DNA of 64,000 bases from Eledone cirrhosa (taxonomy: Eukaryota), in assembly GCA_964016885.1 (NCBI GenBank), contig OZ024744.1, positions 119,226,001-119,290,000 on the forward strand. Direction: 5' to 3'. This document shows positions 9,001-52,840 of this stretch, one piece after another (positions within the stretch are counted from its first letter, which is position 1; each line of letters begins with the position of its first letter). The position numbers were made by a program, and so were the translations under genes. Under the pieces are notes generated by a model. That model ran no database searches and was not told the DNA's origin. It was given only the letters and a program-made list of their open reading frames with translations.

Positions 9001-12000
9001 TGTTACTAACATTATTACTGTAACAACTGACTAATGTTACTAACATTATTACTGTAACAACTGACTAATGGTACTAACATTATTACTGTAACAACTGACT
9101 TGGTGTTACTAACATTATTACTGTAACAACTGACTTGGTGTTACTAACATTATTACTGTAACAACTGACTAATGTTACTAACATTATTACTGTAACAACT
9201 CACTAATGTTACTAACATTATTACTGTAACAATTGACTTGGTGTTACTAACATTATTACTGTAACAACTGACTAATGTTACTAACATTATTACTGTAACA
9301 ACTGACTAATGTTACTAACATTATTACTGTAACAATTGACTTGGTGTTACTAACATTATTACTGTAACAACTGACTTGGTGTTACTAACATTATCACTGT
9401 AACAACTGACTAATGGTACTAACATTATTACTGTAACAACTGACTAATGGTACTAACATTATTACTGTAACAACTGACTTGGTGTTACTAACGTTATTAC
9501 TGTAACAACTGACTTGGTGTTACTAACATTATTACTGTGACAACTGACTAATGTTACTAACATTATTACTGTAACAACTGACTTGGTGTTACTAACATTA
9601 TTACTGTGACAACTGACTAATGTTACTAACATTATTACTGTAACAACTGACTTGGTGTTACTAACATTATTACTGTGACAACTGACAAATGTTACTAACA
9701 TTATTACTGTAACAACTGACTTGGTGTTACTAACATTATTACTGTGACAACTGACTAATGTTACTAACATTATTACTGTAACAACTGACTTGGTGTTACT
9801 AACATTATTACTGTAACAACTGACTTGGTGTTACTAACATTATTAATGTAACAACTGGATAATGTTACTAACATTATTACTGTAACAACTGACTTGGTGT
9901 TACTAATATTATTACTGTAACAACTGACTAATGTTACTAACGTTATTACTGTAACAACTGACTAGGTGTTACTAACATTATTACTGTAACAACTGACTTG
10001 GTGTTACTAACATTATTACTGTAACAACTGACTAATGTTACTAACATTATTACTGTAACAACTGACTTGGCGTTACTAACATTATTACTGTAACAAATGA
10101 CTAATGTTACTAACATTATTACTGTAACAACTGACTAATGTTACTAACATTATTACTGTAACAACTGACTAATGGTACTAACATTATTACTGTAACAACT
10201 GACTTGGTGTTACTAACATTATTACTGTAACAACTGACTTGGTGTTACTAACATTATTACTGTAACAACTGACTTGGTGTTACTAACATTATTACTGTAA
10301 CAACTGACTTGGTGTTACTAACATTATTACTGTAACAACTGACTTGGTGTTACTAACATTATTACTGTAACAACTGACTAATGTTACTAACATTATTACT
10401 GTAACAACTGACTTGGTGTTACTAACATTATTACTGTAACAACTGACTAATGTTACTAACATTATTACTGTAACAACTGACTTGGTGTTACTAACATTAT
10501 TACTGTAACAAATGACTAATGTTACTAACGTTATTACTGTAACAACTGACTAGGTGTTACTAACATTATTACTGTAACAACTGACTAATGTTACTAACAT
10601 TATTACTGTAACAACTGACTTGGTGTTACTAACATTATTACTGTAACAAATGACTAATGTTACTAACATTATTACTGTAACAACTGACTAATGTTACTAA
10701 CATTATTACTGTAACAACTGACTAATGGTACTAACATTATTACTGTAACAACTGACTTGGTGTTACTAACATTATTACTGTAACAACTGACTTGGTGTTA
10801 CTAACATTATTACTGTAACAACTGACTAATGTTACTAACATTATTACTGTAACAACTGACTAATGTTACTAACATTATTACTGTAACAATTGACTTGGTG
10901 TTACTAACATTATTACTGTAACAACTGACTTGGTGTTACTAACATTATCACTGTAACAACTGACTAATGGTACTAACATTATTACTGTAACAACTGACTA
11001 ATGGTACTAACATTATTACTGTAACAACTGACTTGGTGTTACTAACGTTATTACTGTAACAACTGACTTGGTGTTACTAACATTATTACTGTGACAACTG
11101 ACTAATGTTACTAACATTATTACTGTAACAACTGACTTGGTGTTACTAACATTATTACTGTGACAACTGACTAATGTTACTAACATTATTACTGTAACAA
11201 CTGACTTGGTGTTACTAACATTATTACTGTGACAACTGACAAATGTTACTAACATTATTACTGTAACAACTGACTTGGTGTTACTAACATTATTACTGTG
11301 ATAACTGACTAATGTTACTAACATTATTACTGTAACAACTGACTTGATGTTACTAACATTATTACCGTGACAACTGACTAATGTTACTAACATTATTACT
11401 GTAACAACTGACTTGGTGTTACTAATATTATTACTGTGACAACTGACTAATGTTACTAACATTATTACTGTAACAACTGACTTGGTGTTACTAACATTAT
11501 TACTGTGACAACTGACTAATGGTACTAACATTATTACTGTAACAACTGACTTGGTGTTACTAACGTTATTACTGTAACAACTGACTTGGTGTTACTAACA
11601 TTATTACTGTGACAACTGACTAATGTTACTAACATTATTACTGTAACAACTGACTTGGTGTTACTAACATTATTACTGTAACAACTGACTTGGTGTTACT
11701 AACATTATTACTTTAACAACTGACTTGGTGTTACTAACATTATTACTGTAACAACTGACTTGGTGTTACTAACATTATTACTGTAACAACTGACTTGGTG
11801 TTACTAACATTATTACTGTAACAACTGACTTGGTGTTACTAACATTATTACTGTAACAACTTACTTGGTGTTACTAACATTATTACTGTAACAACTGACT
11901 TGGTGTTACTAACATTATTACTGTAACAACTGACTTGGTGTTACTAACATTATTACTGTAACAACTGACTTGGTGTTACTAACATTATTACTGTAACAAC

Positions 12001-15000
12001 TGACTTGGTGTTACTAACATTATTACTGTAACAACTGACTTGGTGTTACTAACATTATTACTGTAACAACTGACTTGGTGTTACTAACATTATTACTGTA
12101 ACAACTGACTTGGTGTTACTAACATTATTACTGTAACAACTGACTTGGTGTTACTAACATTATTACTGTAACAACTGACTTGGTGTTACTAACATTATTA
12201 CTGTAACAACTGACTAATGTTACTAACATTATTACTGTAACAACTGACTTGGTGTTACTAACATTATTACTGTAACAACTGACTAATGTTACTAACATTA
12301 TTACTGTAACAACTGACTTGGTGTTACTAACATTATTACTGTAACAAATGACTAATGTTACTAACATTATTACTGTAACAACTGACTAATGTTACTAACG
12401 TTATTACTGTAACAACTGACTAGGTGTTACTAACATTATTACTGTAACAACTGACTTGGTGTTACTAACATTATTACTGTAACAGCTGACTAATGTTACT
12501 AACATTATTACTGTAACAACTGACTTGGTGTTACTAACATTATTACTGTAACAAATGACTAATGTTACTAACATTATTACTGTAACAACTGACTAATGTT
12601 ACTAACATTATTACTGTAACAACTGACTAATGGTACTAACATTATTACTGTAACAACTGACTTGGTGTTACTAACATTATTACTGTAACAACTGACTTGG
12701 TGTTACTAACATTATTACTGTAACAACTGACTAATGTTACTAACATTATTACTGTAACAACTGACTAATGTTACTAACATTATTACTGTAACAATTGACT
12801 TGGTGTTACTAACATTATTACTGTAACAACTGACTTGGTGTTACTAACATTATCACTGTAACAACTGACTAATGGTACTAACATTATTACTGTAACAACT
12901 GACTAATGGTACTAACATTATTACTGTAACAACTGACTTGGTGTTACTAACGTTATTACTGTAACAACTGACTTGGTGTTACTAACATTATTACTGTGAC
13001 AACTGACTAATGTTACTAACATTATTACTGTAACAACTGACTTGGTGTTACTAACATTATTACTGTGACAACTGACTAATGTTACTAACATTATTACTGT
13101 AACAACTGACTTGGTGTTACTAACATTATTACTGTGACAACTGACAAATGTTACTAACATTATTACTGTAACAACTGACTTGGTGTTACTAACATTATTA
13201 CTGTGACAACTGACTAATGTTACTAACATTATTACTGTAACAACTGACTTGGTGTTACTAACATTATTACTGTAACAACTGACTTGGTGTTACTAACATT
13301 ATTAATGTAACAACTGGCTAATGTTACTAACATTATTACTGTAACAACTGACTTGGTGTTACTAATATTATTACTGTAACAACTGACTAATGTTACTAAC
13401 GTTATTACTGTAACAACTGACTAGGTGTTACTAACATTATTACTGTAACAACTGACTTGGTGTTACTAACATTATTACTGTAACAACTGACTAATGTTAC
13501 TAACATTATTACTGTAACAACTGACTTGGCGTTACTAACATTATTACTGTAACAAATGACTAATGTTACTAACATTATTACTGTAACAACTGACTAATGT
13601 TACTAACATTATTACTGTAACAACTGACTAATGGTACTAACATTATTACTGTAACAACTGACTTGGTGTTACTAACATTATTACTGTAACAACTGACTTG
13701 GTGTTACTAACATTATTACTGTAACAACTGACTAATGTTACTAACATTATTACTGTAACAACTCACTAATGTTACTAACATTATTACTGTAACAATTGAC
13801 TTGGTGTTACTAACATTATTACTGTAACAACTGACTTGGTGTTACTAACATTATTACTGTAACAACTGACTTGGTGTTACTAACTTTATTACTGTAACAA
13901 CTGACTTGGTGTTACTAACATTATTACTGTAACAACTGACTAATGGTACTAACATTATTACTGTAACAACTGACTAATGGTACTAACATTATTACTGTAA
14001 CAACTGACTTGGTGTTACTAACGTTATTACTGTAACAACTGACTTGGTGTTACTAACATTATTACTGTGACAACTGACTAATGTTACTAACATTATTACT
14101 GTAACAACTGACTTGGTGTTACTTACATTATTACTGTAACAACTGACTTGGTGTTACTAACATTATTACTGTAACAACTGACTTGGTGTTACTAACATTA
14201 TTACTGTAACAACGGACTTGGTGTTACTAACATTATTACTGTAATAACTGACTTGGTGTTACTAACATTATTACTGTAACAACTGACTTGGCGTTACTAA
14301 CATTATTACTGTAACAACTGACTTGGTGTTACTAACATTATTACTGTAACAACTGACTTGGTGTTACTAACATTATTACTGTAACAACTGACTTGGTGTT
14401 ACTAACATTATTACTGTAACAACTGACTTGGTGTTACTAACATTATTACTGTAACAACTGACTTGGTGTTACTAACATTATTACTGTAACAACTGACTTG
14501 GTGTTACTAACATTATTACTGTAACAACTGACTTGGTGTTACTAACATTATTACTGTAACAACTGACTTGGTGTTACTAACATTATTACTGTAACAACTG
14601 ACTTGGTGTTACTAACATTATTACTGTAACAACTGACTTGGTGTTACTAACATTATTACTGTAACAACTGACTAATGTTACTAACATTATTACTGTAACA
14701 ACTGACTTGGTGTTACTAACATTATTACTGTAACAACTGACTAATGTTACTAACATTATTACTGTAACAACTGACTTGGTGTTACTAACATTATTACTGT
14801 AACAAATGACTAATGTTACTAACATTATTACTGTAACAACTGACTAATGTTACTAACGTTATTACTGTAACAACTGACTAGGTGTTACTAACATTATTAC
14901 TGTAACAACTGACTAATGTTACTAACATTATTACTGTAACAACTGACTTGGTGTTACTAACATTATTACTGTAACAAATGACTAATGTTACTAACATTAT

Positions 15001-17431
15001 TACTGTAACAACTGACTAATGTTACTAACATTATTACTGTAACAATTGACTTGGTGTTACTAACATTATTACTGTAACAACTGACTTGGTGTTACTAACA
15101 TTATCACTGTAACAACTGACTAATGGTACTAACATTATTACTGTAACAACTGACTAATGGTACTAACATTATTACTGTAACAACTGACTTGGTGTTACTA
15201 ACGTTATTACTGTAACAACTGACTTGGTGTTACTAACATTATTACTGTGACAACTGACTAATGTTACTAACATTATTACTGTAACAACTGACTTGGTGTT
15301 ACTAACATTATTACTGTGACAACTGACTAATGTTACTAACATTATTACTGTAACAACTGACTTGGTGTTACTAACATTATTACTGTGACAACTGACAAAT
15401 GTTACTAACATTATTACTGTAACAACTGACTTGGTGTTACTAACATTATTACTGTGACAACTGACTAATGTTACTAACATTATTACTGTAACAACTGACT
15501 TGATGTTACTAACATTATTACTGTGACAACTGACTAATGTTACTAACATTATTACTGTAACAACTGACTTGGTGTTACTAATATTATTACTGTGACAACT
15601 GACTAATGTTACTAACATTATTACTGTAACAACTGACTTGGTGTTACTAACATTATTACTGTGACAACTGACTAATGGTACTAACATTATTACTGTAACA
15701 ACTGACTTGGTGTTACTAACGTTATTACTGTAACAACTGACTTGGTGTTACTAACATTATTACTGTGACAACTGACTAATGTTACTAACATTATTACTGT
15801 AACAACTGACTTGGTGTTACTAACATTATTACTGTAACAACTGACTTGGTGTTACTAACATTATTACTTTAACAACTGACTTGGTGTTACTAACATTATT
15901 ACTGTAACAACTGACTTGGTGTTACTAACATTATTACTGTAACAACTGACTTGGTGTTACTAACATTATTACTGTAACAACTGACTTGGTGTTACTAACA
16001 TTATTACTGTAACAACTTACTTGGTGTTACTAACATTATTACTGTAACAACTGACTTGGTGTTACTAACATTATTACTGTAACAACAGACTTGGTGTTAC
16101 TAACATTATTACTGTAACAACTGACTTGGTGTTACTAACATTATTACTGTAACAACTGACTTGGTGTTACTAACATTATTTCTGTAACAACTGACTTGGT
16201 GTTACTAACATTATTACTGTAACAACTGACTTGGTGTTACTAACATTATTACTGTAACAACTGACTTGGTGTTACTAACATTATTACTTTAACAACTGAC
16301 TTGGTGTTACTAACATTATTACTGTAACAACTGACTTGGTGTTACTAACATTATTACTGTAACAATTGACTTGGTGTTACTAACATTATTACTGTAACAA
16401 CTGACTTGGTGTTACTAACATTATTACTGTAACAATTGACTTGCTGTTACTAACATTATTACTGTAACAACTGACTTGCTGTTACTAACATTATTACTGT
16501 AACAACTGACTAATGTTACTAACATTATTACTGTAACAACTGACTTGGTGTTACTAACATTATTACTTTAACAACTGACTTGGTGTTCCTCACATTATTA
16601 CTGTAACAACTGACTTGGTGTTACTAACATTATTACTTTAACAACTGACTTGGTGTTACTAACATTATTACTGTAACAACTGACTTGGTGTTACTAACAT
16701 TATTACTGTAACAACTGACTAATGTTACTAACATTATTACTGTAACAACTGACTTGGTGTTACTAACATTATTACTTTAACAACTGACTTGGTGTTACTA
16801 ACATTATTACTGTAACAACTGACTTGGTGTTACTAACATTATTACTGTAACAACTGACTTGGTGTTACTAACATTATTACTGTAACAACTGACTTGGTGT
16901 TACTAACATTATTACTGTAACAACTGACTAATGTTACTAACATTATTACTGTAACAACTGACTTGGTATTACTAACATTATTACTGTAACAACTGACTTG
17001 GTGTTACTAACATTATTACTGTAACAACTGACTAATGTTACTAACATTATTTCTGTAACAACTGACTTGGTGTTACTAACATTATTACTGTAACAACTGA
17101 CTTGGTGTTACTAACATTATTACTGTAACAACTGACTAATGTTACTAACATTATTACTGTAACAATTGACTTGGTGTTACTAACATTATTACTGTAACAA
17201 CTGACTAATGTTACTAACATTATTACTGTAACAACTGACTTGGTGTTACTAACATTATTACTGTAACAACTGACTTGGTGTTACTAACATTATTACTGTA
17301 ACAACTGCCTTGGTGTTACTAACATTATTACTGTAACAACTGACTTGGTGTTACTAACATTATTACTGTAACAACTGACTTGGTGTTACTAACATTATTA
17401 CTGTAACAACTAACTTATGTTACTAACATTA
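1..17431. repeat. Satellite array of 35-bp (ACTAACATTATTACTGTAACAACTGACTTGGTGTT) and 34-bp (…ACTGACTAATGTT) monomers, ~500 copies, with higher-order structure; runs off the left edge
   Basis: Continuous tandem repetition seen directly; ends abruptly at …TACTAACATTA|ATTGACATGG (~17431). Confidence 0.99.
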
Positions 17432-19200: not shown

Positions 19201-21352
19201 ATCATCATCATCATCATCATCATCAGGTTTAGCGTCCGTGTTCCATGCTTGCATGGGTTTGGACGGGGGTTTTCCCACTTGAGGCAAGAGTGGTTGTCTT
19301 GCTCGCATAGGACTGTCTGGCGGGTTTTCTACAGCTGGATGCCCTTCCTAACACCAACCACATTTACAGTGTGGGGCTGGGAGGTTTTTACCGTGTTGCC
19401 TACACGGCCACATTACAGCGTGGACTGTCTGGCGGGTTTTCTACAGCTGGATGCCCTTCCTAACACCAACCACATTTACAGTGTGGGGCTGGGAGGTTTT
19501 TACCGTGTTGCCTACACGGCCACATTTACAGTGTGGACTGTGTGTTTTTTTGTCGTGACACCTACACGACCTCATTTGTTTCGGCCTGGATGTTGTGGGA
19601 CCAACATAACTTTACATTGAAAGGGGCAGTGAGGATGGGGTGGAGGTGGTGGGACGGGGGGTGATGCCTACTGACTGTAGTAGGTTTTTACTTTGTATTT
19701 ACGTAAGGCGGGTCTTCTCTATTACTGAGTACCGCCAAAGGTCTCGGTCCAGTGACATTGTCTTGGAGAGGTGTAAGCGTGTGAGGTCGGAATTTATCAG
19801 CTCGTCCCAGGTTTTTCTGGGTCTGCCTACTCCATGGCTACCGTCTATCTTTATTGCCCTGCACTTTGTTATACAGCTGTCGTCTTTCATGCGCATCACG
19901 TGACCGTACCAACGTAGCCTTCTCTCGAGTAAACAACATCTGATCCCTCTTATTTCTAATTTTTTCCTTAGTTCGTTTATGCTTAGCCGTTCACGTATAT
20001 TACTATTGCACATCCAGCAGAGCATGCAAGCTTCGTTCCTCTCTAGTCTGCGTATATCCTCTGCACACAATGCCCAGGTCTCACTGCCATGCAGCATTGC
20101 TGTTCGTATGCAGGCATCGTATAACCTGCCTTTCATTTTTAGGGAGAACCCTCTAGTGGCTAATAGTGGTATAAGCTCTCTGAACTTTTTCCATCCAGTT
20201 CTGACTCTAGCTACTGTACTTTCAGAGCACCCTCCCCCACTGCTGATTTTGTCACCCAGGTAACGGAAGCTGTCCACTATTTCTATAGAACCATCTGCGC
20301 AATTGAAAGAGCTAGTATTTAGTGGGCACTTGCTGCTACTTATTGCACCAGAGCACTGGCCACATGTAAAATCTATGTTCTTAGTTAGCTTACCTGTGAT
20401 CCCACTACATCTTTTATGCACCCATACTTTGCATTGGGGACATAAAATGGAGTTTCTACCTACGCCTTTCCTACACACTGAGCATGGCCATTTCCCGGAA
20501 GGGACCGCCGCCTTATTTTCTTTCCTACAAACTAGAACTTTAGTCTTAGCCAGGTTAATTTTAAGGCCTTTTGATTCTAGGCCGTGCTTCCATGTTTGGA
20601 ATTTCTTCTCTAGTTCGGTCATTGATTCAGCTATGAGCGTTAGATCATCTGCGTATAGGAGTTCCCATGGGCAGCCGGTCTTGAACTCCTCTGTTATAGC
20701 CTGAAGGACAATAATAAATAGTAGGGGGCTAAGGACAGAGCCCTGATGGACACCAACTTTTACGCTAAACTCTTCACTATATTCGTTGTTAATTCTAACC
20801 TTACTGACTGTTTCTTTATACATGGCTTGTATAGCTCTCACAAGCCATTCGTCAACACCTAGTTTTCTAAGAGCCCACCAGATAATGGAACGGGGGACTC
20901 TGTCGAAGGCTTTCTCCAGGTCTACAAAAGCTAAGTAGAGGGGTTTACCTTTAGCTAGGTACTTCTCCTGTAGTTGTCGTACAATGAAAAGAGCGTCTGT
21001 GGTACTTTTACCTGATACAAACCCGAACTGCATTTCATCTAGATCAATTCTCTCTCTGATTAGTTGTGCTATTACTTTTTCCGTGACCTTCATGACCTGG
21101 TCGATTAATTTAATGCCTCTATAGTTACTACTATCTAGGGCGTCTCCTTTACCCTTATAACAGTTAACGATGATGCTGCTACGCCAGTCCTTCGGAACAA
21201 CCCCATTCTGTACGACTTGGTTAACTATGCGGGTGACCATGGTGTGTCCCACCGTACCAGATGCCTTCAGCATCTCAGCAACTATTTCCGAAGGCCCAGC
21301 CGCCTTACCCGTCTTCATATCCTTGATTGCCTTACTTATTGTACTACCCTCG
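19201..21352 (-). mobile_element. 5'-truncated RTE-clade LINE with 3' UTR and (GAT)n tail
   Basis: RT ORF on the minus strand; 3' UTR ends …GCATGGAACACGGACGCTAAACC(TGA)n; a 112-bp tandem duplication lies in the 3' UTR (~19311-19533). Confidence 0.93.
19699..21318 (-). CDS. RTE reverse transcriptase (N-terminally truncated, open frame of 539 aa) with Cys/His-rich insert CSVC…CPQC…HKRC…CGQC
   Basis: Motifs KGKGD…NYRGIKL, QFGF, FVDLEKAFDRV, GVHQGSVLSPLLF, YADD, FRYLG, HGSETW, RRLRWYGHV, GRPRKTW. Confidence 0.92.
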   Translation of the reverse strand: MKTGKAAGPSEIVAEMLKASGTVGHTMVTRIVNQVVQNGVVPKDWRSSIIVNCYKGKGDALDSSNYRGIKLIDQVMKVTEKVIAQLIRERIDLDEMQFGFVSGKSTTDALFIVRQLQEKYLAKGKPLYLAFVDLEKAFDRVPRSIIWWALRKLGVDEWLVRAIQAMYKETVSKVRINNEYSEEFSVKVGVHQGSVLSPLLFIIVLQAITEEFKTGCPWELLYADDLTLIAESMTELEKKFQTWKHGLESKGLKINLAKTKVLVCRKENKAAVPSGKWPCSVCRKGVGRNSILCPQCKVWVHKRCSGITGKLTKNIDFTCGQCSGAISSSKCPLNTSSFNCADGSIEIVDSFRYLGDKISSGGGCSESTVARVRTGWKKFRELIPLLATRGFSLKMKGRLYDACIRTAMLHGSETWALCAEDIRRLERNEACMLCWMCNSNIRERLSINELRKKLEIRGIRCCLLERRLRWYGHVMRMKDDSCITKCRAIKIDGSHGVGRPRKTWDELINSDLTRLHLSKTMSLDRDLWRYSVIEKTRLT

Positions 21353-21552
21353 ACAATAAGTAAGGCAATCTTATATATATATTCTTAAATATATATATAT
21401 ATATATATATATGCTTCAATCAATCCCGGTGTATATATATATAGATAGATAGATAGATAGATATATATATATATATAACGAAGGAAATGTGGTAAGGAAC
21501 CAGGTGGACCATAACGCACCAAAGTACTCAATACTTAGGGTAGTAGAGTGGG

Positions 21553-36920: not shown

Positions 36921-37337
36921 ATTAAATGCATTAAACAAAAATTTGATTGTTTTTTATATTGTACTTCTGCTCTGTAGTATATCTGATATTTTACATTGAG
37001 CTAATTATCTTACTGGTAATTGGGTAATACACAATATTACCCTTATCTTATTTATAATTCTATATAGATTATATATATAAGTATAAATATTATTATTAAT
37101 ATTATTATTATTATTATTATTGAATGCTATGGTTGACGGAGGCTCGGCTCTGTAAGGTATTGTAAATTTTGAACGCTATAACAATTGTAAATTGTTTAAA
37201 ACTTTAACCAACTTGTAGACAAAAACACCCTCCTCCTCGTGAGAGGGGTCTTTGTGCCCGTTATTTGGCCCTTCGGGGTTAAATAACTGCTTATTGGGGT
37301 TTAGTGCCCAATATTTATTTTAAAGAAAAAAAACAAC

Positions 37338-38261
37338 ATGGCTACGAAAAAGAATTTTCATAGGTCACTCCCACTCATTCCGTCTTCTTCTTCCTCAATC
37401 GTCACTACAGCAGAGAGAAGATTGTCTCTCTCCCTCCCTTCTTTAAATGTGTCTCTCTCCCTCCCTTCTCTTTCGCAAGCGACGACAGAAAAGAAAAGTC
37501 TCGTGCAAAGCGTGCAAGATTTCTCCACGACGACGACGACGACAACGACGAAACAGGTGTGCGGGAAATACGAAAACCCATTTCATTCGTCTGACGTCAG
37601 GAATAATAGCAGTAGCAGCCGTAATAATAACAGCAACAGTGACAATGAAAACAATAGTAGCAGCCGCAACAGCATCAGCAGCAGCATAAACAACAACAGC
37701 ATTAGCAGCAGCAACAACAACAACAACCACAGCAACAGCGGCGGAGGCAGTAGTCGTAGTACCTGCAGCAACAACAAAAGTAACAGCAGCTCTGACGACA
37801 ACAACAACAACAACAGCAGCAAAGAAAAACCAATCTCGTTTGCAGGTATCGCGAAGAACCTGGAAACAATCCTCATAACAAATGAGGAATTAGAGGAAGC
37901 GAAGAAGATGGTGACAAAGAATGGACACCGAGCAATCTGCAAGGCAGCGGAAAAATTTTTCGAAACCCAACAGCACTGTACGGTCACGTACCGTACAGTA
38001 AGTACAAAATCCCGTAGGGTGGAAAGAGCCACAGAGGCTCAAATACAAAAATCCTTGGGATCTGTGTGGCAGCGGAAAACACACATCACCCGAGGCAAGA
38101 AATATGCCACCGTAGACGTACTTTTTGCCACACCCCAGGAAGCAAAGGCTCAATCCGTAGTGACCCTAAGGAGCGAGGAAATGGTGTTGGTGCCCTCCTA
38201 CTGCGGGAAAAAAATTGTGAGGGTCAAACTGACCCACGTCCCCCCCCCCGTCTACGGGTAA
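37338..38261 (+). pseudogene. Element 1 ORF1 (Asn/Ser-rich N-terminus plus globular domain; zinc knuckle lost by deletion)
   Basis: Homologous to element 3 ORF1 (TVTYRTVS…HITRGKKY…VLVPSYC). Confidence 0.8.
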
Positions 38262-38861
38262 AGTCTACTGCAAAGAGACTCACAGCAGCAACACCACCAA
38301 CACCATCACCACCCACACTAGCACCACCATAACTACCGGCGACAACCCCCACCGCCAACAACAACAACACCTTCAACACCACCACCACAAGCACCAACAT
38401 CGTAAACACAACAACAAAACACACACACCCAGCAAAAACGACAAGAAAATAGCAGAACCACACCCCACCCCCATAAAAACAAATGCACGGCAATAAATAC
38501 ACACAACAAGAAACTAATGACTTACATAATTGAACACACAGACATTTCACAACGCGACTACATAATACCAGCACCAATCAAAACGCCAACTAACATAAGA
38601 CTGCTAAAAATAGCACAGAAACAATACACAAACATTAAAACGAAATTCCCCAACGCAGTTGGTGATTTCAGAGACCTAGGAGGAACTATCAACCGAAGAG
38701 TATATTCGGACATACTCATAGAAGAGCCGATGACCAGCCGAAGGGACGATTCAACGGTCCCTTCACCAGACGATCAAGTGAAAAGGGATGTAAAAAACCA
38801 TCCCTCCTCTACGAAAAGTACGGTAAGTGGTCTTTCCCATCTTTTCCACTCTATTTTAAAC

Positions 38862-41800
38862 ATGACCTCACTCAGAATAGGTAGCATAAATGCGCGTGGC
38901 TTGGGGTCGTCATGGAAGCAGGGTCACCTGCTCAACGACATCAGGTCACTAAACATAGATGTAGTGGCCATCAGCGAGACCAGAATCTCCGAAGCACGGG
39001 CCTTCGCACCGATCTTCGGCGGCTACGATGTGTACGCATCTCCCAGCCGTCCTGGATCGGGGGGAGGAGTTGCTGTGCTTTTTCGGAGAGGTTTGGATCT
39101 CGCCATACGGGCCATCTTCCTGGACCCAGAGGGTAAGTTGGTGGTGCTGGACGTGACCAGCGGAGACGGGCAAGCTTTCAGGCTAGTGGCCGTCTATGCC
39201 CCGACAGGAGCAGGGCGGCCTGATTTCTTCCGGCGTCTGGAGACCTTTCTTGGAACGTCCCGCTCTTTAGTGTTAGTGGGCGACTGGAACGGGATCTTAG
39301 ATGCACGCTGGGACTGTGTGGGATTAGCGGATAGGGGTGGAGGGTGCAAGAGCCTCACCAACCTGCTCAGGCGTTTTGAACTGTCTGACAGGTACCGATT
39401 GGATTTCCCGAATGTGCCAATGTGGACTTGGACAAATCGCATAGGGTCATCCAGATCATATCTAGATAGAGTATTTTGTAGGGAAATAGATAGGTCTAGC
39501 ATAGGCTGTCCACAATTCAAGATAGTCAACTACACGGACCACAAATTCGTGATCTGTGTGCTTGACTTAGATAGGCTTCATAGACGAGGACCCGGCTACT
39601 GGAAGCTAAACGCGTCCTTACCAGCGCGCAAGGCCTACAGAGACCGGATTAGCGAACTAGTTAAGCGGGCGTTGACGGGGGCCATCGTCAACAACAAGTG
39701 GTGGTTTGCTCTGAAAAGAGCGATTAGAATAGAATCCATTAGGTTTAGTAAGGCTTTAGCAATAGAGAAAAATAGAGCAGAGGGAGAACTAGTTAGAAAA
39801 TTAGACGAGGCGCTTAGCAAAGGCATTGCGACCGACGTGCTTGCGGCGAAATTGGCCCTTGACCAATTCTTCAGTGCAAAGCACGAAGGCTGCGTTGTCA
39901 GAGCAAGGGTGCGTGCTCTCAGACACGAGGGGACGAAAGCCGTTCAATGGGCCCGAGTGGCGGAGGCGCGTCGTGGCAACAAAGCCACGATCCGGTCTTT
40001 GGTGGACCACGACGGGCACATGCTACTCGATCCCGGGCAAATGTGTGAAGCTTTTCAGCGACACTTCGCTCAGCTGTTCGGGGGTAGCGGTGGGCCGGGT
40101 CGAGGGATGGACTTTAGTGTCTACCTCGACGGACTGCCGCGGCTCTCGGCCACTGAGGCGAAGTGTTGCGAAAAGCCGATAACAGCCGCTGAAGTAAGGG
40201 AGGCAATGACTGGCTGCACATGGGTAAATCGCCTGGATGGTCTGCCCTATGAACTTTACGTACAGATGCCAGACTTGTTCGGAGGCCTCTTGGCAGACGT
40301 CTACTGCAACTGGCAACAGAACGGGAGAATTCCCAGTTCTGTGAGCCGAGGAGCGGTGGCACTGCTGAGAAAGGATCCGAACAAGGGGGATAACATAGAT
40401 AATTTCCGGCCCATAAATCTGCTAAACACAGAGTTCGAGATTTTGGCCAAGGTGCTAGCAAAGAGGTTGGCGCTTGTCGTTGGTGGACTGGTGGGAGAGG
40501 CGCAGACATGTGCCATTCCCGACAGATCCATCCACGACAACTTCCACCTCGTGCGATACATCGTAGAGAGGGTAGCTAGGGAACCTGGCACGGGTGGGTC
40601 CTTGATCAATTTAGATCAGTCGAAAGCTTTCGATAGGGTCGACCATCGTTACCTAGCGGCAGTCCTGAGGGCGGCTGGCTTTGGGCCCGTCTTCAGAGGC
40701 TGGATCGCTGCCATGCACAGCGACATCTGCTCTGTGGTGAGAGTGAACGGTCACCTGTCGGAACCGTTCAACATCATGCGCTCGGTCCGCCAAGGATGTC
40801 CCCTCTCGTCCCTCTTGTACGTATTGACTCTCGAGCCATTACTATACAAACTGGAGACGTTGAGGGGCATCCCGCGCGAACTAGGATGCGGAAGATCCGT
40901 GTCAGCATATGCGGACGATGACACCGTAGTGGTATCAAACGCCAAACACATCGAGGCGATCGGCACTACACTAAGAGAATACGAAGCGGTGACAGGAGCA
41001 ATGATCAACCAGGAAAAGTCAGTGGGCCTGCAGCTCGGCACCTGGAGAGGCAGGTCCATGCCGTCCAACAGCGTCGTCGGACGCTGGACGGACGGACCGG
41101 TTAAATTGATAGGGGTCTGGTTCGGTCCGGACCTCCAGACGGACAAAAACTGGGACGAGGTGACGAGCAGGGTGGCTTCTCTCACCCAGAAATGGGCGGA
41201 GAGGAAGCTATCCCTGAAAGGTCGAGCGGAGGTGGCTAACGCGTACATCGCGTCTGTCATCTGCTACCGCCTGACCGTCGTACCTTGTCCTAAGCCTCGC
41301 CTGACTGCGCTGGGGCGTTTGCTCTTTCGCTTTTTGTGGAAGGGACGCGCTCCGATGGTCAGGCGGTCCATCTGTTGTCAACACCCGCTACGTGGAGGGC
41401 TGGGCATGCCGTGGCTGATGATGCGCAGGCACGCGCTCAGGTTACGACATCTCCACCTCTTCCTCGACGGTGATCAGGTGTGGTCGCCGTTTGCTAGACG
41501 CGTATTTCCCCAGCTCGTTTCCTTGACGGAGCTGCAGTCCTGGGTCAAGCGAAGACCGAGAGGGAGCGCCTGGAGACTGGAATGTCTTCAGGCGCTCACA
41601 GCCCTCGACTAATCGGGCAATGTGATCGGTGGAAACTCCACCTCGGCGTTCTATAGAGGATTAGGGGAGGGGAAGAGCGACGACGTACTTGGGGAAACTC
41701 TAGGCGTCGACGAAAATCAACTAGCCAATCTCTTCGGAAGAACTTTCGGGCCACGGCCTATGGACAACTTCCAGAAATCTCTGGCCTGGCAGTGCTACCG

Positions 41801-42275
41801 AGGAGCCTTGCCAGTTCGGGATAAACTCTACAGGCATGGATGTGCCGTCAGCCGGGCATGTCCGAGATGCGCGCAGGGCGACGAAACCGTCCTGCACGCA
41901 CTCGTCCAGTGTCCGAAAATTGCTGACTTGTGGGTTTATGTCGAACACCTGCTGTCGCGTTTAGGACGGATCCGGCTATCATCTGAGTCCATCGTGAGGA
42001 TTGCCCCGCCCTCCTCCTTTAGCCGGGAAGGGCAGGCAGTTTTTATCTGTCTGGTGGCCATGGCGAAAGAGATAGTATGGTGGACACGTTTGAAAGGGCT
42101 GAAGACGAGCACTTACCTCTTCGGTGATGCTCTGATTGACTTTTTCAAATTTCATTTGAAAAGGAAAATCAGAGTAGAGAAGGAAGTGCTCTCTTCCCAG
42201 CATTTTGTTGAAAGATGGGTGAGAGAAGCAAGAATGGCCCGAGTGAATGGGCCTACTCTGAGTATATATCTGTAA
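38862..42275 (+). pseudogene. Element 1 ORF2 (APE endonuclease, RT, CCHC finger); one in-frame stop at 41610-41612
   Basis: IGSINARGL, ISETR, GDWN, SYLDR, TDHK, GPGYWKLN, DQSKAFDRV, RQGCPLS, YADD, GGLGMP, CPRC…ETVLHALVQC; ORF 41622-42275 continues in the same frame. Confidence 0.93.
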
Positions 42276-42549
42276 ATTAAAGGTGGAAAACTGGGAGAGG
42301 GCACTTGCCTTGGTGGTCAGGGTCATTGTGGCTTTTTACTGGGCTTTCTCCACAAATGTCCCTCCGAAGTCTCCCCCCTATTGGGGAATTTTTCAATGTT
42401 ATTTTTTGTTACATCCTCTGTTTTTGTTTTTTACACGCAGAAATGCCCATTTGTACCGTCCTGTATTGTCCTGCACTGTCCTTAATGTCTACTTTATGTA
42501 AACCCTTGTGGTTAATAAAGAAATCATTATTATTATTATTATTATTATT

Positions 42550-45500
42550 GGTCGTTGAAGCGAATGGACGTACTATCGTGAGCTGGTAAGTTTGTTTTGT
42601 TCAACGGTTTGAAATACGTTTGTCATTAATATTTTTGTTTCAAACGGGAAATAAGACTTTAGTCTTTGCCCCCAAGAAAGGACTCCCCATAATATTTAAA
42701 CTTTGTGTGTTTAAAAGAAAATGTTTCTAAAAAAACAAAAAAAAACATGGCGGAGGCACGCCCCCCCCCCCCCCACACACACACACACACAACTTTGAGT
42801 TTGCAGTCTTGCAACAGCGAGTCAAACTTTGAGGTTAATAACGCTGCCCCTCCCACAACAATTTTAAAATGTAACAACACATCAGTGAGAACAAAAATGA
42901 CAACAGCAGCACCAGCGACATTACCAAAGACAGTAAAAAAAACAGTCGTGAACAAGAACGACAACAGCACCAGCAACAACGACAGCAAAACCATCAACAA
43001 CTGCAATAATGACAACAACACCAACAACAGAAAGAACGACAACAAAGACAACAATATCAACAACAGTGTCAACCACAACAACAGCAACAATAACAATAAC
43101 AATAGCAGCAGCAACAATATCAACGAAAACAACAACGAAATTAACACCACTAACCAGAACATAAACAGCGACAACACCAACAGCAACAATACCAACTGCA
43201 CCGAAATCAACAACAATGGCGGCACCAAAGATATAACCAACTGCAACAATGATAACAGCAACTACACCAACAAAAACAACGACAACAACAACATCACCAA
43301 CGACAAGAAGAAGAACACTTTCGCTGTGGCAGCAGCCAAAAAGAGGCCATGTTTCAGCATGGACCTCTCGAATAAAGATGAAAAGTTGGCCCAGGCCTGG
43401 AAGCTCATCAAGCAAGAGCAAACCTGGGCCAACTTAACTGTCCCAGTAGAAGCTATTGAAGCAGTGGAGCGTAGAACGGTGCATTACAGATGCATCTCAG
43501 CAGAAACCAAGAGGGCAGCTTTAATTGCACAGGCAGATGTTGAAGCTGCGCTGAGGTGCATCAGGGATGACACCGACTACATAGCGAGAGGCAGACAATA
43601 CAGCATCATTTTGGTGCTGTTTAAGTCAGAAACCATCGCTATGAAACATGCTATAACCTCTTGCAAAACCAGCAACGTCATAATCTACCCCTCCCACGTG
43701 GGAAAACAAACAGCTCATCTCCGCATTCCCGGGATCCCACCAGAACTTGACATGTGGTGGCTTCTGGGATGTGTGATTGTGGAGAGGACGGGTACCGTCC
43801 CGAGAGAAGTAACAAGAACTGCCAGAAAGGTCTGGTCCGGGGTTGACCTGGAGATACTTCTCCAGATCAGGCCGGAGAATGTCAAAACAATCCCGGACCA
43901 CATCTGTCTTCAGAACGGGACAGTAATACACATCATGACTGACGGTAAAAGGCCGCATTGTTTCATTTGTGGGGAAAAAAACCATTTGCGAGCCTTCTTC
44001 CCTTAACTGCTGAAAGATGCAAGGGGTCGACGGGCTCCACTGCTGTCCATGCAGAGACGAGGACCACAACCAACACCAGCACTGGCAAAATCTCCAGTAG
44101 AAAGACCACCCAGGGGGAAACGAGGAAAGTTGTCAAATTCCCCCTCCCCCCAAAATACACACATCAATAAAAACATAAACACACACAGAGACACACTCAG
44201 AGGCACAGACCCCTCATCTACCAGCAGTGAAGATGAGGGAAAACCAAAATCCCCAAAAATACAAAAAAGGAAACACAAAAAGAAAAAAAAGTCAACAAAG
44301 CACAAAACCACCACCCACGCAAACATCTCCCCAACAACAACATCAACACCACCATCACCATCACCAGAATCACCCAAACACAAACAACCTAAACAGACGC
44401 AAGAACAAATACACACACAAACATCTGAAACCACAGACACCACACTCACAACAAACACAGACACAACTGAAACAACACCATCAAAACCATCACCACCACA
44501 ACCACAAATAAAACCACCCCAACAAAACATACAAAACTTTGTGCTCGTCAGGAGGGCCAACAAGGAATTGATGGCCCTCATAGCACGAAGTGAAGAAATA
44601 CAAAAAGAGGGCGGAATTTTTAAATCAAACACATTTGCTTCTGGTGCGAATGTCACTCGATTTCTACAAAAGGATACGAGACAGCTTTCCTCGGGACGTA
44701 GGAACCCCAAACGTAAAACCCACTTCAAGACTTTTAAAGGGGTTCCCAAAAGAAACCCCACCAACTATAGAGGTCGAACCACCCGACCTTCACAAGAGCC
44801 CAGAAGGTAAGTAAACCCTTCATCTTTCTTTTAGCCTGCCAACATGGCCATATTAAGAGTAGGAAGTTTAAATGTTCGAGGCGTGGGATCACCCTGGAAG
44901 CAGGGTCACCTGCTCAACGACCTCAGGTCTCTAGAAATGGATGTAATTGCCGTCAGTGAGACCAGGATTTCCGACACGCACACACTAGCCCCCATTTTCG
45001 ACGACTATCAGATCTTCACATCTGTTAGTCGACAGGGAATGGAAGGTGGGGTGGCATTGCTGTTTAGGAAAGGCCTGGATCCAGAGTTAAGGTCGATCTT
45101 CCGGGACCCGGACGGTTAAGTTGGTGGTCCTGGACGTGAACAATAATGAAGGTGGTGCCTTTAGACTGGTGGCCATCTACGCCCCTACTGGAACAGGACG
45201 GCGGACTTCTTTAGATGCCTGGAAGCCTTTCTGGGTAGGTCTCACCCTTTACTGGAACGGCATCTTAGATGCACGCTGGGACTGTGTGGGAGTATCCGAT
45301 AGGAGCGGGGGGGGTGCAAAAGCCAGTTCCAACTGTCTGACAGGTACCGACTAGATTTCCCTAATGCGCCAGTGTGAACCTGGGCTAACCGCATATATAG
45401 ACAGAATATTCATTAGGAAAATAGACAGAAATAGTGTAAGCTGTCCACGTTTTATAACGGTCGCCTATTCAGATCACAAGTTTGTGATCTGTACGGTCGA

Positions 45501-47999
45501 CCTAGATAAAACGTGTCGGTTAGGACCTAGTTACTGGAAACTGAACATGTCATTTCCGGTACGTAAGGCTTACAGGGATCAGGGTCAACAATTTAGTTAA
45601 GCAAAAGTTGACAGGGGGGATCATCAACAACAGATGGTGGGGGGGGGGGGCTCTCAAAAGAGAGATTAGAGTAACTTCGATAGAGTTCAGCAAAGAAGTA
45701 GCGTTAGAGAAAAATAGAAAGGAGGGGGAGCTGGTAGATAAGTTAGACGAGGATATTTGTAGTGGCATTGCAACTGACGTGCTAGCGGCGAGAATTGCAT
45801 TAGACCATTTCTTCAATGTGAAACACGAAGGTTGCATTGTCAGAGCTAAGGTGCTAGCTCTGAGAAATGAGGGAACCAAATCTGTTCGATGGACCTGCAT
45901 GGCGGAGGCGCAGCGTGATAATAAAACCACAATTCGGTCTTTGGCGGACCGAGACGGACACGAGCTGAGCGATTCCAAGCGGATGTGTGAGGCCTTTCGC
46001 CAACATTTTGCTCGGTTGTTCGGGGGAAGTGGCGGATCAGAGACATTAGCGGACTTCAGTCCCTACCTTGGCGACTTGCCGAAACTCTCGACGGTTGAAC
46101 GCTGCGAAAGGCCGATTACTTCAGCCGAGATTTAGGACGCCCCTGTCGGCTGCATGAGGCGCAAGTCACCCGGTTTGGATGGTCTGCCCTACAAGCTTTA
46201 CGTAAATATGCCAGACTTGTTCTCCGATCTCCTGCAACTGGCAGCAGAATCGGAGTATTCCCAGTTCTGTGAGCAGGGGAGTGGTGACGCTGATTAGGAA
46301 AGACGAGAACAAGAGGGATACATTAGACAACTTCAGGCCCATAACTCTGCTCAGCACAGAGTTTAATATTTTGGCCAAGGTGTTAGCGAAGAGGTTGGGT
46401 GCTTGTCGTCGAGGATTTGGTTGGGGAGGCGCAAACTTATGCAATCCCAACCAGTCCATACGCGACAACCTCCACCTCATGCGATACATCATAGAGAGGG
46501 TTGGGTGTAAACCTGGCTTCGGTGGGGCTCTGATCAATTTAGATCAATCGAAAGCATTCGATAGGGTCGACCATCGGTACCTGGAGGCTGTCCTCCAAAG
46601 CTGGATCGCTGCAATGCACAGCAGCATCTGCTTGATAGTCAAGGTTAATGGCCACCCCTCGGAACCGTTTCAGGTCTCCCGATCGATCCGTCAAGAGTGC
46701 CCTCTCTCCTCCCTTCTGTACGCATTGACTCTCGAGCCTTTACTGCAGAAGCTGGAGCTGTTGCAGGGCATCCCGCTTGAACCGGAACGCGGAAAGGCTG
46801 TGTCGGCTTGTGCGGACGACATCACCGTGACGGTGTCGGACACCTCAGAAATCGAGGTGGTCGGTACCTTATTGAAGGAATATGAAAGGTTGACAGGAGC
46901 CAAACTTAACCCGGAAAAGTCGGTGGGCTTGCAACGCAGCACGTGGAGAGGAAAGCCCATGCTGTCCAACAGCATCGTGGGGCGCTGGACGGACGGATCG
47001 GTAAAGTTGCTCGGGGTTTGGTTCGGACCAGACATCCAGGTGGAAAAGAATTGGGATTGGAATTCGACCCGGGGACGATGGATAATTTCCAAAAATCCCT
47101 CGCTTGGCAGTGCTACCGGGGGACACTGCCGGTTTGAGATAAACTCTACAGGCACGGAAGTGCTGTCAGACGGACCTGCCCAAGATGCGCGCAGAGCGAC
47201 GAAACTGTTCTGCACGCACTCGTCCAGTGTCCGTGCATTACTGACTTGTGGAGTTATGTTGAACAGCTGTTGTCGCGTGTAGAACGGATCCGGCTATCGG
47301 CCGAGTCCATAGTGAAGATTGACCCGCCGCCTTCTTTTGGCCAGGAAGGGCAGGCAATTTTCCTCTGTCTGGTGGCAGTAGCGAAAGAGGTTGTATGGTG
47401 GACGAGGTTGAAAGGACTGAAGACAGACACTTTTCTCTTCGGCCAATGCCTCATCAACTTATTCAAGTTTCATTTGGAAAGGAAGGTGAGGGTGGAGAGA
47501 GAAGTCCAACAGCTGCGCACGGTAACTTACCGCACCGTAAGCAAAATGTCACATCAGGTGGAGAGAGCCTCAGAGGCTCAAATCAAAAAGGCCTTGCGGT
47601 GCGTCTGGGTGCGAAAAACCCACATCACTCGAGGCAAAAAGTACACCCCAGTACATTTGCTGAAAGGTGGGTGAATGTGGTTAGAATGGCCCGTGTGAGT
47701 GGATCTACGCTGATCATGCTCCTGTAGGTGGGTGAAGTTGAGGAAGAGAGGGGTGCCCTTCCCAGGTGCTCTCGAAACGTTGGGTCGTTCAAGATTGGTG
47801 GGGTACCTGAGCGAACCCTGGGTGGTCATCCCCCCCCCTATTGTGGAATTTTTCTTGTATTTTTCTTGTTACTTTGTTATTGTTATTTATACTGTTTACA
47901 TGTTGTATATGTAAACCCCCACTGTCCCTGTCTATTGTGTTGTCCCCTATATGTCGGCCTTTGTGGCCAATAAATGAAATCATTATTATTATTATTATC
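42550..47999 (+). mobile_element. Tx1/L1-type LINE, element 2 (distinct subfamily), decayed, ends in (ATT)n
   Basis: ORF1 from ATG 42747 with Asn-rich tract and CFICGEKNH knuckle; frameshifted ORF2 from 44844 with deletion near 47060; 3' UTR with AATAAA. Confidence 0.9.
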
Positions 48000-50900
48000 G
48001 GTCTGTTCGGACGCTTTTTGCTCGCTCCCAGTAAGTCGCTTTATTTGCCTGTTAAAATTATTTGTTGTTAAATATTTCTTGTTGTGTAAGGGATATAAGC
48101 CCTTAGACTTTGCCCTGTGAAGAGGAAAGTATAATATTTGGGCCTTTTGGCCCAAATATTTGAACATTTTACTTTTAAAAATGATTTGAAAAAAATAAAC
48201 ATGGCTGAAATATAGAGACAGTGCTAGTCACGAAGGAGGAGATGGCAGTCGCAAGAGCCATGGTGTCGAGAAACGGCAATAGAGTTTCCCTGAAACCTCC
48301 ACCCGATTTCTTCAAAGACCAACAGCTGCGCACGGTAACTTACCGCACCGTAAGCAAAATGTCACATCGGGTGGAGAGAGCCTCAGAGGCTCAAATCAAA
48401 AAGGCCTTGGGGTGCGTCTGGGTGCGAAAAACCCACATCACTCGAGGCAAAAAGTACACCACAGTAGACGTACTCCCCCCCCCCCCCCCCCAAGAGGCGA
48501 AGTCTCACTCTTTGGAAACCCTAAAGAGTGAGGAGATAGTCTTAGTGCCCTCCTACTGCAGGCAGAAAATTGTGAGGGTCAAAGTGACCCAGGTCCCGCC
48601 CGACGTGCCCATACCTTGGCTGGCCGCATCTGTACTGGCTGGAATCGAGGAGAAGACCACCATACTGCAAATATAGAGAATGGGAAGAGAGAACTGGTCA
48701 GGAATAGGCATGCAAATGCTAATACAGATTGATCAGGAGTGTATCGAGGCCATCCCAGACATCAAGAAGACCTCGAAGAAGGGCTCCAACTCCCTATAAG
48801 CGTGGTAGGAATGCACCAAAAGTGCTATCTCTGTGGGCAGAAGGGTCACCTCAGGGCCTTCTGCCCGCAGAAGACAGCCAAGAAAAGAGCCCCCCCCCCC
48901 CTCCTTCCGACGCCTGATCTGCTACTGCCAACAGCAGGGCAGGCAACAGAGGCAGAAGACCCTTCCATGGTGAGTAGGAGGTAAACGTCCGTGGCACCCA
49001 TACCAAGGCCATGGACAACTAAAGCAGCAGCAACAGTGGCGGCAACACCAACAGTCGCAGTAGCTACACCAGCGGCAAAATCGCCGGAGCGGGCTCCGCT
49101 ACCACCACCAACAGCAGTGGAGCTCATACCCCTCCCAGACGCCATGGAATCTGACATGGAGTATGAGGCGGGAGGGAAGTGGCAAACAGTCCGCCACAAA
49201 AAACAAAAGAGGAAAAACCCCTTAGCTTCACCCTCCAAAAGTGAAGGCAGACAAAGAGGGGTATAGGCTGCAAGGAGACTTGTAGCAACACCGCCACCAC
49301 AAGCATCACCACCAACAACAACTACACCACCACCAGGATCACCAAAAACACCAACATCCAAACACAACAAGACACACACCAAACAGCAACAAGAAGAAAA
49401 CAGCAACAAAATCACCCCTCCCCCAAAAAGTACACAGCCATAAACATGGCAAAAAAAGAACTCATACAATATATAAAGCAGCACACAGACATTACAGAAA
49501 AAAACTACTACACCCCACCAACACCAAGAACTCTCCCGACAAACATAAGCATCATTGAAATCTTAATAGAAGAGTACAAACCTTTAAAACAAAAATTCCC
49601 CAACGCAGTTGGAGACTTCAGAGGGTCAGTTACCAAGAGGATATACACTGACATCCTCTTGGAAACATCCATGACCAGCCAAAGGGCCGGTTCTACTGTC
49701 CCTTCACCACACGATCAAGGTAAGTGATCCTTTCTCACTTTCCCCGTTTCTCATTCAACATGGCCGTACTCAGAATAGGTAGTATAAATGTACGTGGCCT
49801 GAGGTCATCTTGGAAGCAGGGTCACCTGCTCAACGACCTCAGGTCACTAAACATAGATGTGGTGGCCATCAGCGAGACCAGAATCTCCGAAGCACGAACC
49901 TTCGCACCGATCTTCGGCAGCTACGATGTATACGCATCTCCCAGCCGTCCAGGATCAGGGGGAGGGGTGGCAGTGCTTTTTCAGAAAGGCTTGGACCGAG
50001 AAGTTAAGTTGGTGGTACTGGACGTGACCGGCAGCGGAGGCAATGCTTTCGGGCTAGTAGCCGTCTACGCCCCAACAGGACAGCCAGATTTCTTCAGACG
50101 TCTAGAGACCTTTCTGGGAACGTGCCGCTCTTTAGTGTTAGTGGGTGACTGGAACGGTATCTTGGATGCACACTGGGATTGTGTGGGGCTAGTGGATAGG
50201 CGAGGAGGGTGCAAGAGCCCACCAACCTGCTCAGACGTTTTGAACTGTCTGACAGGTATCGACTTGATCACCCGAATGTACCAATGTGGACATGGACAAA
50301 CCGCATCGTGTCATCCAGATCGTTCTCGATAGGGTATTCTGATAAAGCTAGTATAAGTTGTCCACAATTTAAAATAGTCGACTACACAGACCACAAATTC
50401 GTGATCTGTGAGATCGACATAGACAGACTTCATAGACAAGGACCTGGTTACTGGAAGCTGAACACGTCTTTCCCGGTGCGCAAAGCCTACAGAGACTGGA
50501 TTAGCGTATTAGTTAAGCGGGCGTTGACGCGAGCGATCGTCAACAACAGGTGGTGGTTCGCCCTGAAAAGGGCAATTAAAGTAGAGTCGATTAGGTTTAG
50601 CAAAGGACTAGTGAAGAGGAAAATAGAGTAAAGGGAGGGCTAGTCAGAAATCTAGAAGAGGCGTTTAGGACAGGCATCGCAACCGACGTGCTTGCGGCGA
50701 GATTGGCACTCGACCAATTCTTCAACGCAAAACACGAAGGCTGCCTTGTCAGAGCTAGAGCGCGTGCTCTGAAACACAAGGGGACGAAAGCCGTCCAATG
50801 GGCCCTGGTGGCAGAGGCGCACGTGGCAACAAAGCCACAATTCGGTCTTTGTCTGACCAAAACAGGTGCGTGATGCTCGAACCCGAGCGGATGAGTGAAG

Positions 50901-52600: not shown

Positions 52601-52840
52601 TATATAAAATTATAAATAAGATAAGGGCAATATTGTGTATTACCCAATTACCAGTAAGATAATTAGCTCAATGTAAAATATCAGATATATTACAGAGCAG
52701 AAATACAACATAGTTAACAATCATATAATGGCTAATGCCTTTAATTGCTGACGATCGTTTCTTCCAGAACATACATAGTGTTAAAACAAATAAATAAGTT
52801 CCTAATCTTTAAAATTTATTTATTTGTTTTAATATTGAAT
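52601..52840 (-). mobile_element. Second, inverted copy (B) of the hammerhead-bearing repeat; ribozyme 5' half deleted
   Basis: Reverse complement matches ~36810-37068, including the palindrome centre TAAAGATTAGGAA and TCTGGAAGAAACGATCGTCAGCA. Confidence 0.85.

Follow-up and report, generated by a model that had tools for sequence, protein, structure and literature searches.

What keeps a splice donor at the end of the first open reading frame (ORF1) of an intronless retrotransposon? The question is raised by a 64,000-nt stretch of the 3.0-Gb genome of Eledone cirrhosa (GCA_964016885.1, contig OZ024744.1, positions 119,226,001 to 119,290,000), referred to below as the window and numbered from its first letter. 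Three L1/Tx1-type long interspersed elements (LINEs), elements 1, 2 and 3, lie head to tail on the plus strand between (ATT)n runs; each carries an endonuclease–reverse transcriptase ORF2, and the three belong to three different multicopy families. The original prediction, made from the letters of the window, had placed a G|GTAAGT donor shortly before ORF2 in all three, and we found it there: GTAAGT at 38823..38828, 44807..44812 and 49720..49725, always after G, with a pyrimidine-rich spacer and then AACATG downstream; the ORF2 ATG is at 38862, 44844 and 49760, that is, 39, 37 and 40 nt from GTAAGT. The reading we favour, with a probability of roughly 0.55, is that the ORF1-stop site is a U1-bound, mostly unspliced donor that was used at least twice to join elements into hybrid families, including that of element 1.

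To gauge conservation we counted matches to the donor consensus CAG|GTAAGT, a score of our own, in 18 clusters of ORF2 starts built from 74 distinct loci. In 13 of the 18 clusters the 75 nt before ORF2 contain a site with a U1-match score of at least 7/9, while 500 rounds of dinucleotide shuffling gave a mean of 0.8 and a maximum of 4 clusters scoring at least 7. Since the clusters are related by descent (median identity of 64% over the first 200 nt of ORF2), this is conservation and not 13 independent origins. The five clusters below the threshold are single copies; by eye, a degraded donor can be made out at the corresponding position in four, and the fifth (L151) lacks the donor region. A pattern for ORF2 starts of other families gave 157 matches, and among the 100 listed, donors stand 25–54 nt before the ATG in many more families. 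The variants are GTAAGT, GTGAGT, GTAGGT, GTATGT, GTAAGC and GTAATT, mostly after AG.

The donor overlaps the ORF1 stop codon in two reading phases. ORF1 ends Arg-stop in families 1, B, 4, 5 and 6 and Gly-Lys-stop in families 2, 3 and A, and a C-terminal ORF1 motif common to families 2, 4, 5 and 6 fixes the frame and shows both phases. In family 1 the longest frame ends Arg-stop, with the stop within the donor, in 28 of 30 loci; the window copy and L012 have one-base indels and L020 a mutated donor, which explain the exceptions only in part, as several family-1 copies have short frames from other lesions. Among loci with an intact donor, the longest frame ends Gly-Lys-stop in 15 of 23 for family 2, to which element 2 belongs, and in 22 of 24 for family 3; the donor of element 3 is likewise in the Gly-Lys-stop phase. 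Two phases and the variants GTAAGT, GTGAGT and GTAGGT indicate that the site is conserved as nucleotides, not as codons. The original prediction had named terminal Gly-Lys-stop codons as a possible sole cause of the motif, and family 1, ending Arg-stop in another phase, speaks against this. We consider it very likely that the ORF1-stop site is a functional donor.

Family 1, represented by element 1 (37122..42549), is itself a composite of two other families. Family A has family 1's 5′ untranslated region (UTR) and ORF1, its own donor and a family-3-type ORF2 (82 pattern matches; the 30 loci fetched were 24 A copies, 5 family-1 point variants and 1 family-3 copy). Family B has a different ORF1, and shares with family 1 the last 42 coding nt, the donor, the spacer and ORF2. 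Family 1 follows A through ...GATCAAG, the last base before A's GTAAGT, and then B from the base after ...AGCAG, a junction that falls at 38778/38779 in the window. Identity is 89.8% to A up to A's donor and 93.6–94.9% to B from the AG onward, and in trees with five copies per family the left part groups with A and the right part with B. The junction lies 42 nt before B's own donor, out of register, and the ORF1 tail is doubled in the family-1 protein; this doubling sets the direction of chimera formation. The 5′ end of B is next after A in 4 of the 18 arrays read. On this sequence evidence 38778/38779 is likely a fossil donor-to-AG junction. Within the right part, copies are 98% identical in family 1 as against 93% in A and in B, which makes family 1 the youngest. 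It numbers about 2,000 copies at 97–98% identity and is also, among the families counted, the most abundant seen.

Within element 1, the A-derived part (37122..38778) comprises the 5′ UTR and ORF1 (ATG at 37338) and ends exactly at the place of family A's donor. The B-derived ORF1 tail (38779..38822), which in B comes after CAG, measures 42 nt in B, 43 in family 1 and 44 in element 1. There follow the donor (38823..38828), which includes the ORF1 stop TAA (38824–38826; Arg-stop phase in intact copies), the pyrimidine-rich spacer ending in AAC (38829..38861), and ORF2 (38862..42275) with its apurinic/apyrimidinic (AP) endonuclease, reverse transcriptase and C-terminal zinc region. In element 1, 640 nt of ORF1 are deleted, an additional A stands near 38792, and an in-frame stop interrupts ORF2 at 41610.

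A second chimera has the same anatomy. Locus L199 shows the ORF1-tail doubling of family 1, and its left flank led to a family, C, whose donor flank gave 486 matches divided into GTAAGT and GTGAGT subfamilies. In L199 and in 4 of the 100 listed family-C rows, the C donor position is joined to the family-5 sequence that follows TTGTGCAG; this entry point is 23 nt before family 5's own donor and again out of register. The junction is exact in three of the five copies. The AG of TTGTGCAG has an AG-free zone of 94–158 nt and a CTAAT/CTCAT branch-like motif. Among 212 junction loci, many of them fetched through donor flanks and hence not a random sample, the only two out-of-register junctions with a multicopy parent are these two chimeras, both at the donor. 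A third event (L454, with another ORF1 subtype) is possible from its sequence, with weak tree support.

We think it likely that the chimeras arose through a spliceosomal cut. In the scheme we propose, a transcript would read past the first poly(A) signal of one element into the next, for which read-through in TART arrays offers a precedent (PMC1636488). Splicing would then link the upstream donor to an AG that shortly precedes the donor of the next element, with trans-splicing possible too. A weak AG might be chosen since the next donor defines a tiny exon, and that second donor would stay unspliced in the spliced read-through RNA. Since the product retains ORF2 it would be copied in cis, and ORF2-less products would leave few fossils. 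The same junction would result from a template jump to an RNA that had been cut at the donor beforehand.

Several observations weigh against this reading. The B acceptor is poor, scoring −12.8 and ranking 101st of the 140 AGs in B's 5′ part, and the family-5 acceptor is modest (−4.5 and −2.9), on weights that are approximate. Of the five event-2 copies, two have another base immediately after the junction, an intact family-5 acceptor lies downstream of C in none of the 16 arrays read, and at both junctions the joined sequences share AG, a 2-nt microhomology of the kind that template switching exploits as well. Event 1 was recognised post hoc, and event 2 turned up when the anatomy of event 1 was sought. 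Despite many tandem copies, the filter searches described below found no family-1-to-family-1 splice chimera. The number of poly(A) hexamers before the donor is what chance predicts (23 seen versus 23.3 expected) and ORF2 is not significantly depleted of them; with these signals neither enriched nor depleted, no U1-protected site is identified. Finally, among distant L1/Tx1 relatives in metagenomes (80 loci fetched, 21 examined, 13 with a clear ORF2 start), a donor score of at least 7 was found in 0 of the 13, which makes the motif a mark of this radiation and not of the whole clade.

The original prediction had read ORF2 as a facultative intron, spliced out between the donor and an AG in the 3′ UTR of element 1. 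That AG is at 42439–42440, within a putative acceptor-like site (42418..42440); it comes after a T-rich tract and is conserved among family-1 copies. As had been described, there is no AG at the corresponding position of element 2, and element 3, which ends near 52601 without a 3′ UTR, has lost the region. When 17 copies representing 11 families are aligned, no acceptor beyond the donor scores higher than this AG in families 1, B and 11, whose 3′ UTRs are of one type; the other eight lack it, and the family-3 type reads CAC there. At their ORF2 stop the eight carry a weak CTGTAG|GT in place of the TAA of the three; in element 2 the stop stands in a CCTGTAG|GT context (47721..47729), a weak, putative acceptor-like site. 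No strong acceptor is common to the 11 aligned families. A conserved acceptor inside ORF2 was also considered and rejected, the sites there being weak and in coding motifs. The donor is thus conserved (13 of 18 clusters) and the 3′ UTR acceptor is not (3 of 11 families); the two chimeric families do indicate that the donor was cut and ORF2 skipped, but the 3′ UTR AG does not hold up as the general partner.

Precise ORF2 excision, which the original prediction expected to have spawned HAL1-like copies, was sought with flank-pattern filters, each of which catches only junctions that differ at the tested positions. No donor-to-42441 junction was found among the ~1,960 family-1 copies (736 + 1,225 exact copies of two donor-flank variants); the filters able to catch it gave 2, 5, 2 and 0 matches, which were small indels, substitutions or one microhomology deletion. 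Filters for families B, 2, 3, 4 and 5 gave 18, 4, 1, 6 and 3 matches, none spliced; the family-3 filter is blind to two predicted family-3 junctions and would miss one ORF1-only junction, and the family-5 filter is blind to a family-5-to-family-5 splice. The expected copies were therefore absent from the filter searches of families 1, B, 2, 3, 4 and 5, as was a within-element splice at either the ORF1-end donor or the 5′ UTR donor described below. Forty family-1 5′ ends without the first flank variant nearby included no ORF1-only copy at the donor; 23 ran end to end, and the others were deleted, truncated or rearranged. None of 32 deletion junctions from these 40 ends and earlier loci links the donor to an AG: most show short microhomology, one is GT-AG, and one further GC-AG event was seen twice. 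In L347 a non-canonical deletion (element position 2308 to 3996) begins 2 nt inside the donor and ends after an ORF2 CAG. ORF2-less RNA would need ORF2 in trans, as established for L1 (PMC5860796), and would rarely be copied, so the missing copies exclude a HAL1-like family, not an ORF1-only RNA. Logan contigs of X1, X5, X6 and X7 showed no GT..AG joint among the 15 of 118 joints shown, X6 contigs on a full-length family-1 copy gave nine joints, none GT..AG, and one X6 contig runs on through the donor; these, coming from runs of unspecified kind, count neither way. An internal ORF2 promoter was rejected, as the three matches starting 45 nt before the donor proved to be family B and not ORF2-only copies.

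The alternative that survives best is regulated splicing of the copia kind, in which the donor is kept for an ORF1-only mRNA made with family-specific acceptors (42440 or the ORF2-stop CTGTAG|GT) and the chimeras are by-products; we regard it as possible though doubtful. It accords with a donor that always leaves ORF1 complete, with the top rank of 42440 in its families, and with the complementary distribution of the two acceptors, an AG at the ORF2 stop in the eight families without 42440 and TAA in the three with it. The lack of a family-1 splice into the next element is also what would be expected if its own acceptor takes the donor, and Ty1/Copia provides a precedent (PMC5580714). The complementarity rests, however, on one evolutionary change, the acceptors at the ORF2 stop, weak at −2.3 to 5.9, fall within coding sequence, and an ORF1-only genomic copy appeared in no filter search of the six families.

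Less probable still, and in our view unlikely, is that the chimeras came about by template switching of the reverse transcriptase, or by DNA recombination, at AG microhomology rather than by completed splicing. The poor acceptor of event 1 would suit this, as would the prevalence of short microhomology among the 32 family-1 deletion junctions with one GT-AG junction and one GC-AG event seen twice, the L347 break 2 nt inside the donor, and other family mosaics, which switch in register and away from the donor. Yet two independent family-level junctions end exactly at the left parent's donor, for which the rough chance is a few in 200 per event, and neither keeps the register, even though the two parents are homologous at that place. 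One version needs the donor all the same: the jump would be onto the 5′ exon that is set free in the first step of splicing.

It is very improbable that the motif is merely the Gly-Lys-stop codons, or a DNA-binding site like the RUNX3 site in which a human L1 donor lies. Families 2, 3 and A do end Gly-Lys-stop, and the human donor is kept for another reason (PMC5860796); here, however, GT is kept throughout two phases and three stop codons, the bases after the stop are conserved, the same motif occurs in non-coding 5′ UTR, variation tracks the donor consensus and the chimeras break at the donor. Least probable is a fusion of ORF1 to ORF2 by removal of a short intron that would run from the donor to an AG close to where ORF2 begins: the spacer is pyrimidine-rich and AG-poor, the first AG in family 1 (53 nt on) is in frame, and the family-C spacer, read by eye, would as a GT...CAG intron of 37–39 nt give an in-frame fusion, but in most families the first AG is out of frame, 41–61 nt away and poorly scored, ORF2 retains its own AAC-ATG context, and the RNA would be copied in cis, yet no such copy appears in the filter searches of family 1 or in the 100 listed family-C rows.

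The family-C spacer itself (L429, L434, L456–L471) runs GT...TTCAG and ends 7 nt before the ORF2 ATG; its excision would join the two frames, and it is present in all 100 listed copies. Families 2, 10 and 11 have a strong AG 5–9 nt before the ORF2 ATG.

What the favoured donor does from day to day is the least certain step. Several 5′ UTRs that look unrelated have a second donor about 31–37 nt into the element, and a further 5′ UTR type has it near +62: TCT|GTAAGG at 37152..37157 in element 1 (about +31; GTAAGT in other families when aligned), GTAAGT at 42586..42591 in element 2 (about +37) and GTAAGT at 48031..48036 in element 3 (about +35). No copy with this donor spliced out was found against 2,513 family-1 5′ ends or in the other families searched, a stronger genomic negative than that for the ORF1-end donor, since the spliced RNA would retain both ORFs. 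The ORF1-stop donor and the 5′ donor at ~35 nt may be U1 landing sites that keep the transcript, 6 kb long and intronless, from ending prematurely. In other systems, U1 sites are documented to prevent premature termination even where no splicing takes place (PMC12211998, PMC5580714). These precedents, and a 5′ UTR donor conserved yet unspliced, lead us to prefer U1 binding with little splicing, the fallback of the original prediction, to a copia-like ORF1 mRNA; it fits the data at least as well as ORF1-only splicing. As the main selected role of the donor, U1 protection has in our estimate slightly less than an even chance. A more speculative view, which we hold to be rather improbable, gives the spliceosome a part in the LINE life cycle, the selected donor yielding an ORF1-only mRNA and repeatedly swapping promoter and ORF1 onto new ORF2s in arrays. 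If so, new LINE families here, the dominant young one among them, would in good part stem from splicing and not from template switching. The donor is a sharp test between an intronless LINE that uses U1 for transcript protection and one that uses it for the ORF1:ORF2 ratio, as in copia.

In the 5′ UTR an acceptor-like TTGTAG ends at 37218 in element 1. A donor about 33 nt from the 5′ end with TTGTAG 60–67 nt later, which looks like a short intron, recurs at 37152–37218 of the window, L166, L168 and L201, and this layout is found in both ATT- and TATC-targeting families.

Replacement of the 5′ module recurs in the evolution of L1-type elements and is usually attributed to template switching or recombination. 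Here the parents, their tandem arrangement and the junction are all preserved and indicate that the break fell twice at the element's own conserved donor, and one product is a family of ~2,000 copies, not a dead copy.

As in human SpIREs (PMC5860796), an L1-type element carries a conserved, mostly unspliced donor and splicing is fossilised in genomic copies; SpIREs, however, arise by splicing inside a single 5′ UTR/ORF1 and are for the most part unable to spread further, whereas here two families are joined and the product is the youngest and most abundant seen. Of the features that define SpIREs, a precise genomic donor-acceptor junction is found in the two chimeric families, but between two elements; a within-element splice was not found in the filter searches, nor is the product one that does not amplify, family 1 numbering 736 + 1,225 exact motif copies. 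A new 5′ module spliced to a retrotransposon and then propagated is known from the SVA subfamily with a MAST2 first exon (PMC5753468), and one joined through splicing from mRNA/L1 chimeras with donor-ended exons (bioRxiv 10.1101/2025.02.02.635956). In both of those the donor is that of the host exon; here it is the element's own, and promoter and ORF1 are swapped. The Ty1/Copia shGAG system (PMC5580714) resembles ours in a conserved U1 site at the boundary of structural and enzymatic coding regions, a site with splicing and anti-termination roles; those are long terminal repeat elements with a conserved acceptor and mapped RNAs, whereas here there is no conserved acceptor and the evidence is genomic. 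HAL1, a half-L1 of ORF1 plus 3′ tail (PMC5753468), is the product originally predicted, and none was found at the donor in the families searched. Searches of the open-access literature, which take in neither subscription journals nor Repbase Reports, brought up no paper in which a donor is conserved at the ORF1 stop of Tx1 elements or in which LINE-to-LINE splice chimeras are described.

As to the type of element, ORF2 matches the Pfam families PF03372 and PF00078, and its closest solved protein is L1 ORF2p (E 2e-45); a zf-RVT match is weak and under the cut-off, and is listed for P0001, a 78% relative. A separate ORF1 lies upstream, seen as a 726-codon open frame ending in the donor in locus L114, and matched no Pfam family. 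The Tx1 label is that of the original prediction and was given by resemblance. The elements prefer microsatellite targets, with (ATT)n or (TATC)n at both ends and nested arrays, and it is this preference that yields head-to-tail arrays. The Tx1-clade elements Kibi and Koshi (PMC4494074) likewise have two ORFs, an AP endonuclease with reverse transcriptase, and microsatellite targets; unlike theirs, the targets here are (ATT)n and (TATC)n.

The radiation divides into (ATT)n-flanked and (TATC)n-flanked families (L163–L202, L452–L471), and each of the two chimeras joins parents of one and the same target type. In all families of the radiation at these loci the 3′ UTR has a CCTATTG(G/A)GG element together with a TGGY-AATAAA end. 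Family-1 5′ ends (2,513 exact matches) are not rarer than ORF1 ends (736 + 1,225); many copies stand in 6.05-kb tandem arrays, and there is little 5′ truncation for a LINE.

Element 2 may be a mosaic, as its 5′ UTR (42550–42740) is unlike that of the family-2 copies fetched. A family-3-type ORF1 piece of ~150 nt lies within the 3′ end of its ORF2 (47506–47653). Elsewhere in the window, 19699–21384 on the minus strand holds a reverse transcriptase frame followed by a PHD finger, an unusual order. Positions 1–17000 are AT-rich (30% GC), with the same short minus-strand frames every ~4.2–4.6 kb, and are probably a large tandem repeat.

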